Of a DNA stretch of 64,000 nucleotides, positions 19,387 to 43,260 are shown piece by piece (positions within the stretch are counted from its first letter, which is position 1; each line of letters starts with the position of its first letter). The position numbers and the translations under genes were made by a program. Source of the stretch: a virus (taxonomy: Duplodnaviria > Caudoviricetes); IMG/VR virus record IMGVR_UViG_2974623298_000001, positions 1-64,000 of that record. One strand, given 5' to 3'. Under the pieces are notes generated by a model. It did not search any database. It worked only from the letters and a program-made list of their open reading frames with translations, and was not told the origin of the DNA.

Positions 19387-19980
19387 ATGACACACGCAGG
19401 AATCCCGACCGCCACCCAGGACACGAGCGACTTCGACGGTCGTCCCGAGGTGGAACGTGCCAACCAGGCAGCGGTTGCCGCTGGCGAGAAGATCGAAGAG
19501 AAACAATTCGTCGATTACTTCGCCGCGCCCCTCCCGAAGCGTTGGTACCTGCCCGACGGCGTTCAGTACTTCGAGTACCAGGAACTCCGCGAGGGCGGCA
19601 AGTCGGCTTACGAGAAGCTGACGAACAAGGACATCCGCGTTCAGCGGTCCACCGGCGACGCACGCCTGTCGGTCGATCCGGCGATCCAGCGCCAGTCGCT
19701 GATCCGCTTGTCGGTCACCGATGTCTACCTCCTGCAGAAGGATTCGGGCGGCAATCCGCAGCCCATGCCCTTCAACAAGGAGCGTCCCGGCAAGTTCTGG
19801 GAGAACCTGTTCACGTTCTTCCCGGCCGCACTCATCGACAAGCTCCACCAGGAGATCGTCGACGTCAACGCCTGGCTCGCCGCCGACGACGACGTCGAGG
19901 CCCTCAAGGAGGAGCGCGAGCGTCTCGACGAGCGCATCCAGAAGGCCGAAGAGGAGCAGGCAAAAAAGCTCTCCTTGTAG
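19387..19980 (+). CDS. tail assembly chaperone (short, G form)
   Basis: between major tail and tape measure genes; RBS GAAAGG; ends ...AKKLSL. Confidence 0.85.
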   Translation: MTHAGIPTATQDTSDFDGRPEVERANQAAVAAGEKIEEKQFVDYFAAPLPKRWYLPDGVQYFEYQELREGGKSAYEKLTNKDIRVQRSTGDARLSVDPAIQRQSLIRLSVTDVYLLQKDSGGNPQPMPFNKERPGKFWENLFTFFPAALIDKLHQEIVDVNAWLAADDDVEALKEERERLDERIQKAEEEQAKKLSL

Positions 19981-20255
19981 AACAGGCCGCCGACTTCGTC
20001 AAGGGAAATCGGATAGCCAACCCTCATCCCGCCCTGCTCATCTACGGCAGACTCGAGGCGATGAAGTGGTCGATACCCTACACGCCAGGTGGGCTTGAGG
20101 ATCAGAGCGTGATGCTGCTGAGATGCTTCGATGTGATCAATCGGGTCAAGGCAGAACACGAACGACAAGAACAGAAGAAGCGCGAACAAGAGTCCAAGTC
20201 GAAACGTCCCAATCCAAGGGGCGGTTCTCGACCAACGGGCAAGCGCAGAAGGTAA
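19387..20255 (+). CDS. tail assembly chaperone, -1 frameshifted GT form
   Basis: slippery heptamer A_AAA_AAG at 19962-19968; -1 frame open to 20255 (…EAMKWSIPYTPGGLEDQS…). Confidence 0.85.
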
Positions 20256-20299
20256 CAACGAGGGCGGTGCTTGCGGGCACCGCCCTCGTTGTGTATCAT
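20255..20299 (+). terminator. 16-bp hairpin overlapping a SigA-like promoter for the tape measure gene
   Basis: acaacgagggcggtgc/gcaccgccctcgttgt; loop TTGCGG (20271-76), N17, TATCAT (20294-99). Confidence 0.7.
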
Positions 20300-41396: not shown

Positions 41397-42602
41397 CTAC
41401 TCCTTGATGAGCCGCTGCACTACCTTGGGCTTGGGCTCGCCGATGCTCTCCTGGACGGAAGAACGAAGCCTCGATTTCTGAGCCGCGTTCAGTGCGTTGC
41501 CATTCAGGAGCTTGTCAATTTCACTGTTGTTGATTCTGCCAAGTGCTGCGAAGAGGTTATCTCCGATGATCTCGCGTACGGTAGCAGGATCGTAGGACTT
41601 CCGACGCGACGACTTGAACACAACATGGAAGTCATCCGTGTCATACTCGGTCTCGTCGGAGTCCATTGCATCTTCGATCAGCTTCTCCATCACTTCTTCG
41701 ATGGCGTACTTGATCGCCTTCTGTGCACCCTCGAGTTCGAGGTACCGCTTCGCCATCTCGTTGCGGTCGCCAGCCAGGGCCATTATCCCGCCTGCCTGAA
41801 CGTTCTTCGTCAGGACGGGGCACGTAGCTTTCACTACGCAGAACTGGCATTCCGCATTGAGCGTACGCTTGCCGGGCTCGGGCTCTGCGATGATACGCTC
41901 GGCCACCCGACGCACGTACTTCCAAGTAGCCACGTTGTCGTCGCGGGTGAACTTCACTTCGACCGGGTCATACCGGAGCTGATCGAAGCAAACCCAAATC
42001 TCGTCGGGCTCCAGCTCGAACCCGAGCTCCTTGGCGATCTCGTTCTTGGCCAGCATGATAGCCAGTCCATACAGGCGACCCTGCGCCTTCTGTCGCAGAC
42101 CCTGCGGCGTGAGGTGCTGACGCCAGGTCTTGTAGTCGACGACCCGAACAATCTTCTTGCCGTTCTCCTCGAACATGTCGAGGCGGTCGAAGATGAAAGT
42201 GTAGGGCACCTCACCGATCGAGGTCTTAATGGTGACCCTGATCTTGCGCTCGACCATGAGCACCTGCACCTTTTCAAGATCGGTGCGGGAGAACCAGCGT
42301 TCGAGCATGTCGATGCCGTCGTTGTACATGTCGTCTTTGGAATCTGGAATGCGCATGAATTGCTTCATGAACTCCTGCTTGAAGTAAGCAACGAGTACGT
42401 TCCAGTCTAGCTCGTCGCGGGTCTTGCTGATGAACACTTCATCAATGATCCGCTCGAGAACGTCGTGCACGGCGGACCCCAGCTTAGCTGGGTCCGAGCT
42501 ACCCCCTGGACTCGGCGTGCGCTTAACCATCTCAGCGTGGTATCGGAAGGTACAACCCTCGAACACCTGGATGGAGGATGCCGAGATGGTTTTGAGTTCC
42601 AC
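41397..42602 (-). CDS. RecB/Cas4-like PD-(D/E)XK exonuclease
   Basis: ISASS...C, GS.VH, DRLD...VVDYKT, Q.RLY, CQFC.VKATC; GTG start overlaps WhiB stop (TAGTG). Confidence 0.85.
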   Translation of the reverse strand: MELKTISASSIQVFEGCTFRYHAEMVKRTPSPGGSSDPAKLGSAVHDVLERIIDEVFISKTRDELDWNVLVAYFKQEFMKQFMRIPDSKDDMYNDGIDMLERWFSRTDLEKVQVLMVERKIRVTIKTSIGEVPYTFIFDRLDMFEENGKKIVRVVDYKTWRQHLTPQGLRQKAQGRLYGLAIMLAKNEIAKELGFELEPDEIWVCFDQLRYDPVEVKFTRDDNVATWKYVRRVAERIIAEPEPGKRTLNAECQFCVVKATCPVLTKNVQAGGIMALAGDRNEMAKRYLELEGAQKAIKYAIEEVMEKLIEDAMDSDETEYDTDDFHVVFKSSRRKSYDPATVREIIGDNLFAALGRINNSEIDKLLNGNALNAAQKSRLRSSVQESIGEPKPKVVQRLIKE

Positions 42603-42814
42603 TACTTGTTTCCCCTCTTCGTAGTTATGCCGCCCCAGATACCGTCGGTCGAACCAGTGCGTTCTCGATAGTCGAGGCACTCGAGTTTCACTGGGCAGCT
42701 CATGCAAATCTTCTTCGCGCGGTTAGCGCGGGCCGCTTGTCCCCGGCCAGGGAAGAAGGCGTCCGGGTCGTGATACCCTACACAGAGGGCGCGGCGGGTC
42801 CACTCTTCGGGGGC
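42602..42814 (-). CDS. whiB: WhiB-family Fe-S transcription factor, absent from ORF track, no in-frame start codon
   Basis: own translation: EEWTRRALCVGYHDPDAFFPGRGQAARANRAKKICMSCPVKLECLDYRERTGSTDGIWGGITTKRGNK*; C-x25-CxxC-x5-C plus GIWGG. Confidence 0.9.
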   Translation of the reverse strand, partial: APEEWTRRALCVGYHDPDAFFPGRGQAARANRAKKICMSCPVKLECLDYRERTGSTDGIWGGITTKRGNK

Positions 42815-43200
42815 GAGACTGAAGGCGGCTTCGGGGGCGTCGGCTCCGGGCTCTCCGAACTCTTCTCCTTCTCCACAGTCGCAGGACTCTCCTGTTCGAT
42901 CGGGTCGAAGAGCGAGGGCTGCGCAGATTCCGTTGCACCTAAAGGGCGGCGGCCCCCGGACATCTCGAGCTCGAACGCTGTCGTCGGTTCGCCATCACCG
43001 AGAAGCTCGTCAGCGTCAGCTTCGGCATCGGCCTTGGCCTTCTCTTCCGACTGAAATGCCGTCTGTTGCAGGTGCTGCTCGAAGGCGGTTTGTGTGGGAG
43101 CCTTGGCTCGGAAGTCCTGATACCCGTCCTGATCCATCCCTCCGCGTACGGGATGCAACTCGTTGGGTCCAGCGGGCATCTTGAACTGCTGTTCAGTCAC
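42778..43200 (-). CDS. acidic/Pro-rich protein; candidate zero-frame partner of WhiB
   Basis: 140 aa, RBS AAGGAG, contains C_CCT_TTA at 42946-42940. Confidence 0.75.
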   Translation of the reverse strand: MTEQQFKMPAGPNELHPVRGGMDQDGYQDFRAKAPTQTAFEQHLQQTAFQSEEKAKADAEADADELLGDGEPTTAFELEMSGGRRPLGATESAQPSLFDPIEQESPATVEKEKSSESPEPTPPKPPSVSPPKSGPAAPSV

Positions 43201-43260
43201 TGCGTCTCCTTGTAGGTGGTGCTAGGGGGTGTCCGGTTACGTTAGCATACCGGCGCGGGG

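Follow-up and report, generated by a model that had tools for sequence, protein, structure and literature searches.

A probable programmed -1 ribosomal frameshift at a C_CCT_TTA heptamer, predicted to join a WhiB domain to an upstream reading frame in Gordonia phages and their relatives

The 64,000 nucleotides at positions 1 to 64,000 of the virus record IMGVR_UViG_2974623298_000001 (Duplodnaviria; Caudoviricetes), referred to here as the window, carry on their minus strand a WhiB domain that is intact and has no start codon of its own. The question that is raised by this locus is how such a domain is translated. The evidence argues, with a probability of roughly 0.86, for a conserved programmed -1 ribosomal frameshift at the heptamer C_CCT_TTA, which would join the N-terminal part of an upstream open reading frame (ORF) of 140 amino acids to the WhiB domain.

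A WhiB domain that lacks a start codon

The WhiB frame is the -1 frame of the 140-residue ORF and is open from a TGA (42997-42995) to a TAG (42604-42602), which overlaps the GTG of the downstream nuclease gene (42602-42600) in the sequence TAGTG. The domain features all four cysteines and the GIWGG motif, and ATG, GTG and TTG are absent from all 70 -1-frame codons ahead of the first WhiB cysteine. The translation of the -1 frame reads ...PPPFRCNGICAALALRPDRTGESCDCGEGEEF...EEWTRRALCVGYHDPDAFFPG...KKICMSCPVKLECLDY...GIWGGITTKRGNK. An earlier note, made from the letters of this DNA alone, had described this arrangement and had placed an in-phase C_CCT_TTA at 42946-42940 of the 140-residue ORF. 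All of these features were found in the same places, and direct reading confirmed that the heptamer is phased CGC CCT TTA, as an X_XXY_YYZ site. The same note had proposed that a programmed -1 shift produces a fusion protein of about 199 residues, and this proposal is supported by the conservation and replacement of the heptamer, by the upstream stop codons, by the conservation of the -1-frame protein, and by a switch in the reading frame that is under selection.

The heptamer is the sole CCCTTTA of the 64-kb window, both strands counted, and C_CCT_TTA is the sole such in-phase site inside the open stretch of the -1 frame. In the ORFs of the window with a high G+C content at third codon positions, 10 in-phase XXXYYYZ heptamers occur in 13,967 codons, whereas a rate of 1 in 256 would give about 55, a depletion that is consistent with selection against accidental slippery sites. 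A lone in-phase heptamer in one genome is unremarkable, and what counts is that its position and phase are kept across related lineages.

Conservation of the heptamer and change of the selected frame

Related loci were taken from GenBank phages, IMG/VR contigs and metagenome assemblies, and 28 of them, spanning Gordonia, Tsukamurella-like and Rhodococcus phages as well as metagenomes, were read base by base. The region of the window is 99% identical to that of the Gordonia phages BenoitCattle and BigShaq, 97% identical to that of Linetti, and about 88% identical to that of some 40 Montyvirus-type phages. The earlier note had suggested an alignment of orthologous loci as a check on the frameshift, and this alignment determined that the upstream ORF, the WhiB frame at an offset of -1 and an in-phase heptamer of the X_XXY_YYZ type at the homologous position are all present in 28/28 loci, with no continuous ORF. 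The heptamer is C_CCT_TTA in Montyvirus, Woesvirus, Getseptimavirus (GMA7/GTE7-like) and Demosthenesvirus, in the contigs L012/L013, which probably belong to the Tsukamurella-phage group, and in the metagenomic loci L024-L029 and L033. It is C_CCT_TTC in L021 and L022, and it is C_CCA_AAA in GordDuk1, RobinSparkles/Orchid, GMA3, Jumbo, Camerico, and the Rhodococcus phages Mbo2, Perlina and ReqiDocB7. Sharma et al. (2014) reported that C_CC.U_UU.A, C_CC.A_AA.A and C_CC.U_UU.C are all within the 21 heptamers that were selected as shift-prone in E. coli, and that C_CC.U_UU.A and C_CC.A_AA.A are under-represented in E. coli genes (PMC4066793). Additionally, the C_CCT_TTA site is always read as CCC-TTT-AGR in the -1 frame. 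TTT and AGA rank among the eight rarest codons of the window, and because these rare codons are kept in the -1 frame the pattern points to selection on the heptamer at the nucleotide level.

The distance between the -1-frame stop codon and the heptamer ranges from 0 to 64 codons upstream among the relatives. The stop is immediately 5' of the heptamer (0 codons) in GordDuk1 and RobinSparkles, 1 codon 5' in GMA3 and Jumbo, 2 codons in L033, and 6 codons in L021 and L027-L029. The first invariant -1-frame cysteine is found 3-5 codons past the start of the heptamer, and the place where the frame would have to change is tightly bracketed between the -1 stop and this first conserved cysteine. The lack of ATG, GTG and TTG ahead of the first WhiB cysteine is shared by the -1 frame of 17/20 related loci, and in Camerico the whole 183-codon -1 ORF is without these codons. 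Searches with tblastn located an intact -1 ORF at a coverage of at least 80% in 95 phage records, and a CCCAAAA-type query matched 110 records, 48 of these at a coverage of at least 80%; the arrangement is common to over 100 related phage records. A metagenome scan with the alignment of the -1 part returned one locus, which carried an unrelated WhiB only.

No relative examined has both parts in the same frame. Homologues of the 140-residue ORF fall into 15 clusters (116-174 amino acids), none of which carries a Whib domain, and the length range that was searched would have admitted the 199-residue fusion. When 1.8 billion representative proteins were searched with a profile built on the -1 part, no match fell below 1e-30 and none spanned the whole query. 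This search returned 19,323 WhiB-like proteins, of which the best matches are internally started calls of 65-66 amino acids. A match of 94 amino acids that starts with MGGRCKCGEG is the protein of RobinSparkles, and the same frame extends 5' to the C_CCA_AAA site.

The public annotation of the locus is incomplete or absent. In BenoitCattle and Breezic a 33-residue "WhiB family transcription factor" with 2/4 cysteines is called from the ATG at 42703, and in Guillaume the same stub is labelled hypothetical. The WhiB region is left unannotated in Linetti, GMA7 and Camerico, and in the more distant phages Katyusha, GordDuk1, GMA3, Jumbo, Mbo2, Perlina and ReqiDocB7 the call is a WhiB protein of 64-72 amino acids that begins at an internal ATG or GTG. 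None of the annotated records examined has a two-frame joined coding sequence for WhiB. PHROG 11832 (33 positions) coincides exactly with the 33-residue stub, and this family looks like it was built from truncated gene calls.

The frame under selection was determined from Nei-Gojobori counts on five Monty/Woes-type sequences, expressed as the ratio of nonsynonymous to synonymous polymorphism (pN/pS). Over the 240 nucleotides (nt) that precede the heptamer, frame 0 has a pN/pS of 0.18 and frame -1 one of 2.20, in the overlap it is 1.05 in frame 0 and 0.48 in frame -1, and in the WhiB part it is 5.63 in frame 0 and 0.07 in frame -1. 5' of the heptamer both frames other than frame 0 have a pN/pS of >2. 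A comparison of 14 lineages places most of the variation in the four codons ahead of the heptamer at frame-0 third positions. Over the six codons past the heptamer the variation is at -1-frame third positions or is conservative (AGG/AGA/CGT, TGC/TGT, GGA/GGC, ATC/GTC), and the same changes, including those in the CxGxC motif, are nonsynonymous in frame 0. The entropy by codon phase over the 14 codons past the site is not decisive alone, as both frames constrain each other. The selected reading frame switches at the heptamer, because the third-position variation and pN/pS both change frame there.

The -1 product itself is conserved from the heptamer onward. The invariant positions of its alignment are P1, F2, R3, C4, G6 and C8, followed by C22, C24, G25, E26 and G27 and then by the WhiB residues, and the indels in the linker are always whole codons (multiples of three). 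The CCCAAAA lineages have a matching KRL[IV]C[TS]G[IVA]C ... CxCGEG in the -1 frame. The frame-0 tails past the site are rich in P/S/E/T, are 47 to 85 residues long, and are alike only where the -1 frame is constrained.

These results bear on two explanations that do without a frameshifting ribosome. The first takes the split to be an artefact or a sign of decay, caused either by a single base wrongly sequenced or assembled in a C-run or by a frameshift mutation that turned WhiB into a dead pseudogene. There are several C5/G5 runs within the region, and a single genome alone could not exclude such an event. However, the same frame offset is found in 28/28 loci from many independently sequenced phages and metagenomes, and its recurrence in about 100 independently sequenced phage records disposes of the 1-bp deletion or assembly error in the C5 runs that the earlier note had listed as an alternative. 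The strong purifying selection on the WhiB part (pN/pS 0.07), the intact state of all four cysteines and of GIWGG, and the lack of an in-frame "unbroken" ancestor form among the relatives also argue against error or decay, and make this explanation extremely improbable.

The second explanation is that WhiB is translated alone from a non-canonical start in the -1 frame, either the ATC in CNGIC or a TTC after AAGGAG. The near-cognate codons ATC and ATT are present in the -1 frame, and an ATG or GTG stands inside the frame, just 5' of the WhiB core, in Katyusha, GordDuk1, GMA3, Jumbo, Perlina and ReqiDocB7. However, the ATC is not conserved, being replaced by GTC in GMA7, L021 and L025, and the codons from the -1 stop to the cysteine in GordDuk1/RobinSparkles are CCC AAA AGA CTC GTC/GTT, which include no known start. 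The conservation of the -1 protein begins at the heptamer, 5' of every candidate start. The TTC, which had been offered in the earlier note, does not hold up as a start, as TTC is no known initiator codon, a start there loses the conserved CxGxC and CxCGEG, and the AAGGAG ahead of it is accounted for by the codons for GEGE within the conserved CxCGEG. No internal promoter-like site that might yield a leaderless mRNA was found, and such an mRNA would in any case have to start with AUG or GUG. Independent initiation of WhiB is considered very unlikely, and a programmed -1 frameshift at the heptamer is preferred.

Signals at the heptamer and the proposed mechanism

A purine-rich motif that resembles a Shine-Dalgarno (SD) sequence is located upstream of the heptamer in each lineage checked (GGGGG, GGAGG, AAGGAG, GAGGTGG or GGTGGAGGAGG). 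The anti-SD sequence, at the 3' end of 16S rRNA, was supplied from general knowledge, and in 15/15 lineages the strongest anti-SD pairing in the upstream 150 nt sits 3-12 nt ahead of the heptamer; at most 2% of the other 10-window blocks match this heptamer-adjacent pairing. In L021 the motif AAGGAG is retained at the same 6-nt distance although the encoded residues are Arg-Ser and not Gly-Gly, which hints at selection on the RNA.

The earlier note had also assigned a role to the A-site codon TTA as a rare, hungry codon, and this part of its proposal is borne out only in part. TTA is indeed the rarest sense codon, with 7 of the 13,967 codons in those ORFs of the window that have a high G+C content at third codon positions, and a hungry pause at TTA in the A site is plausible in this lineage. 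However, one lineage has TTC in the A site and many have AAA, which means that a rare codon cannot belong to the signal everywhere. The window encodes a single tRNA, tRNA-Asn. No internal promoter or terminator was detected between the two parts.

Slippage by RNA polymerase, giving mRNAs that have lost or gained a base with no involvement of the ribosome, is a further route to such a product and is known from bacteria, for example from Thermus dnaX (PMC5009743). However, the known sites of transcriptional slippage are runs of about 9 A or T (PMC5009743), and the longest runs here are C3-4, T3 or A4. The feature that is conserved at this locus is a phased X_XXY_YYZ heptamer, which is relevant only to the re-pairing of tRNAs, and slippage of the polymerase is highly improbable as the source of the WhiB product.

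Several points weigh against a programmed ribosomal frameshift. The compared lineages are related to each other, and the counts are not fully independent. The cited heptamer efficiencies were measured in E. coli and not in Actinobacteria. An internal ATG or GTG is present shortly 5' of the WhiB core in Katyusha, GordDuk1, GMA3, Jumbo and the Rhodococcus phages, and phages with such a codon may also make a stand-alone WhiB besides the fusion. RNAalifold on 13 lineages revealed no conserved downstream stem-loop or pseudoknot (-1.9 kcal/mol, zero compensatory pairs), single-sequence folds past the heptamer differ from lineage to lineage, and the 90 nt 3' of the site fold no better than shuffled sequences (z = +0.39). 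The SD-like motif is mostly 5-6 nt from the heptamer, closer than the optimum of 10-14 nt that was reportedly found for the SD-to-heptamer spacing in dnaX by Larsen et al. in 1994, and its effect is uncertain because the spacing is shorter than that optimum.

In the proposed frameshift mechanism, translation would start at the GTG at 43200 behind a good Shine-Dalgarno sequence and would proceed through the upstream ORF; the relatives also carry SD-like sequences ahead of the same start. At C_CCU_UUA (42946-42940), where CCU occupies the P site and UUA the A site, some ribosomes would slip back by one base and would then read the -1 frame to the TAG at 42604-42602. The slipped product would be a protein of 199 amino acids that consists of the 87-residue N-terminal part, a four-Cys linker (CNGIC...CDCGEG), and the complete WhiB domain of the [4Fe-4S] type. 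The ribosomes that do not slip would stop at the TAG at 42780-42778 and release the 140-residue protein, whose last 53 residues appear to be an unselected and probably disordered tail. The ribosome is probably held up or put under tension at the heptamer by the SD-like, G-rich motif located 6 nt upstream, and in this lineage TTA, as a very rare codon, may prolong the pause. The layout of the locus, its conservation and the switch of coding frame at the heptamer are observed, the slippage itself, its efficiency and the contribution of the SD-like motif are inferred, and the shift would be the only route to the WhiB domain, because the domain is without its own translation start. The features of the locus are listed in Table 1.

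Table 1. Features of the WhiB locus and its surroundings, given as positions in the window
Feature	Position	Strand	Remarks
Shine-Dalgarno AAGGAG	43206..43211	-	5 nt 5' of the GTG start of the 140-residue ORF; read from the sequence
Frame-0 ORF, 140 amino acids	42778..43200	-	GTG 43200 to TAG 42780-42778; codons 1-87 are the conserved N-terminal part
Frame-0 tail, codons 88-140 of the 140-residue ORF		-	P/S/E/T-rich; without purifying selection
TGA closing the -1 (WhiB) frame 5' of the heptamer	42995..42997	-	
SD-like GGGGG	42953..42957	-	6 nt 5' of the heptamer; may stimulate the shift or pause the ribosome
Slippery heptamer C_CCT_TTA	42940..42946	-	P-site CCT, A-site TTA; proposed -1 shift site
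-1-frame segment read after the proposed shift	42602..42946	-	114 codons and TAG; encodes the Cys-rich linker followed by the WhiB domain
First extra Cys pair, CNGIC	42923..42937	-	Family motif Cx-G-[IVA]-C; begins 2 codons past the heptamer
Second extra Cys pair, CDCGEG	42866..42883	-	Family motif CxCGEG; also in the CCCAAAA lineages
WhiB (WhiB-like, Wbl) domain	42617..42802	-	C-x25-C-x2-C-x5-C and GIWGG; PF02467
33-residue ORF, "WhiB family transcription factor" in GenBank	42602..42703	-	C-terminal third of the domain only; 2/4 Cys
Cas4-family PD-(D/E)XK exonuclease gene, 401 amino acids	41397..42602	-	PF12705, 70.9 bits; Cas4 exonuclease in the annotations of relatives

Predicted products, related systems and significance

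The predicted fusion of 199 amino acids is made of 87 codons through TTA and 112 codons in the -1 frame. A tandem slip, with Leu read in frame 0, would give ...GGRRP-L-RCNGIC..., and a slip in the P site, with Phe read from UUU in the -1 frame, would give ...GGRRP-F-RCNGIC...; both products would have 199 residues, and the predicted junction region is ...SGGRRP[L/F]RCNGICAALALR.... The junction peptide GRRPFRCNGIC, which had been put forward for detection in the earlier note, is correct for the P-site slip (Phe), but a tandem slip gives GRRPLRCNGIC.

The -1 part is matched by the Pfam family Whib (PF02467) with 60.6 bits, where the cut-off is 23.6, in a match that covers profile positions 1-60 of 65, and it aligns with the solved chains of WhiB, WhiB1, WhiB3, WhiB4 and WhiB7 from the W-x3-ALC motif on. 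In the alignment of the -1 products C55, C81, C84 and C90 as well as G102-G106 of the -1 part are invariant. A basic tail after GIWGG makes the DNA contact in many Wbl proteins. Here 8 residues follow GIWGG (ITTKRGNK), forming a short and weakly basic end. The AlphaFold2 model of the -1 part is poor, with a predicted local distance difference test (pLDDT) score of 43. The extra four cysteines of the linker (CxGxC...CxCGEG) may form a zinc site or a second iron-sulfur (Fe-S) site. The fusion would presumably act as a WhiB-like, sigma-factor-binding regulator of transcription early in infection. The IMG/VR contigs L016-L020 encode unrelated WhiB proteins of about 170-180 amino acids, which carry a C-terminal extension resembling a zinc ribbon (CxxC...CxxC) in a single frame, and they show that in other phages too Wbl domains are joined to extra Cys modules, in one frame.

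Pfam has no match for the 140-residue ORF, and no usable match for it was found in the ESM Atlas. An AlphaFold2 model predicts helices at residues 39-47, 50-67 and 75-80 with moderate confidence in a non-globular structure, with a predicted template modelling (pTM) score of 0.20, and predicts the frame-0 tail to be coil. RefSeq and PHROG 6890 label this family "endonuclease". The label looks unfounded, as there is no Pfam match and the AlphaFold2 model consists of three helices and a coil tail. The N-terminal part features a motif near its N-terminus, P-[IV]-x-G ... D-F-R-[AP]-K, that is kept in all lineages and is the sole remnant of this part in the short forms of 32-35 amino acids (GordDuk1, RobinSparkles, L033). 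It also features three TAF[EQ] repeats, the last of which is encoded by the palindrome TTCGAGCTCGAG, located about 25 nt 5' of the heptamer. The conserved motifs of the N-terminal part could serve as a docking peptide.

The proposed frameshift resembles known systems in part. In the same window the tail assembly chaperone genes (ORFs at about 19390-20260) have a -1 shift site, A_AAA_AAG, at 19962-19968 on the plus strand, where frame 0 ends 5 codons past the heptamer and the -1 frame continues for 97 codons, and this chaperone is annotated as a joined frameshift coding sequence in BenoitCattle (99% identical). The tail chaperone G/GT pair of tailed dsDNA phages and the WhiB locus are alike in having a phased X_XXY_YYZ close to where a short upstream ORF ends and a start-less -1 ORF, in their short and long products with a common N-terminus, and in a conservation by position and not by sequence. 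Unlike the chaperone, which is a virion assembly factor, the WhiB case concerns a regulator of the early region, it has C_CCT_TTA or C_CCA_AAA as its heptamer, a folded metal-cluster domain as the extension and an unselected frame-0 tail, and its proposed shift has gone unrecognised by annotation pipelines and annotators. The tau/gamma shift of E. coli dnaX is a bacterial -1 shift with an upstream SD-like sequence, as is proposed for the WhiB site, and Larsen et al. are said to have reported in 1994 that this internal Shine-Dalgarno-like sequence upstream of the heptamer aids the shift. However, dnaX has a 3' hairpin and an SD that lies about 10 nt away, and its shifted product is the shorter of the two, whereas the shift at the WhiB site would yield the longer product, the folding analyses revealed no hairpin there, and the SD-like motif mostly sits 5-6 nt from the heptamer.

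In the OrfA/OrfAB genes of IS3-family insertion sequences (IS911, IS3, IS150), a -1 shift also links an N-terminal module to a start-less functional domain, the efficiency of the shift sets the ratio of short to fused protein, and heptamers of the C_CC.A_AA.G type are used or efficient (PMC4066793). These elements differ in having strong 3' stem-loops or pseudoknots (PMC5009743), which were not found at the WhiB site, and their sequences are unrelated. The stand-alone WhiB proteins of phages, such as that of mycobacteriophage TM4, share the same Wbl domain (PF02467), but they are single ORFs of about 70-130 amino acids with canonical starts, whereas the domain here is start-less, follows a CxGxC...CxCGEG module, and would be attached to the N-terminal part by recoding.

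Genes for WhiB are widespread in actinophages (PMC8612146). The survey that describes them does not mention frameshifting (PMC8612146), the PRFect paper mentions neither WhiB nor Gordonia, and no report of a WhiB protein made by frameshifting was found in the PMC and bioRxiv literature that was searched. The mechanism is of a known kind, and the WhiB locus would be a widespread, unannotated new instance of it.

It is also possible, though speculative and rather doubtful, that the shift works as a regulated switch. In the CCCTTTA lineages the TTA codon, the rarest of the genome, and the SD-like pairing would then tie the yield of the WhiB fusion to the charging of the host tRNA-Leu(UAA) or to the translational state of the host, the phage would tune an Fe-S, redox-sensing regulator with a second four-Cys metal site to the physiology of its host, and the unshifted N-terminal part may be a competitor or a partner of the fusion.

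Programmed frameshifting in tailed phages is routinely annotated only for the tail assembly chaperones. A frameshift at the WhiB locus, if true, would give these genomes a second conserved case of recoding, located in an early regulatory gene, and would be, as far as found, the first for the WhiB-like family. It affects the annotation of about 100 or more records of Gordonia, Tsukamurella and Rhodococcus phages, in which the gene is given as a non-functional 33-residue stub, from an internal start, or not at all. It would also provide a small, naturally occurring example of -1 frameshifting for high-GC Actinobacteria, seemingly without a 3' RNA structure, that is testable with standard reporters and phage engineering. 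The predicted fusion would represent a new protein architecture, in which an N-terminal peptide module and a four-Cys module precede the WhiB domain.

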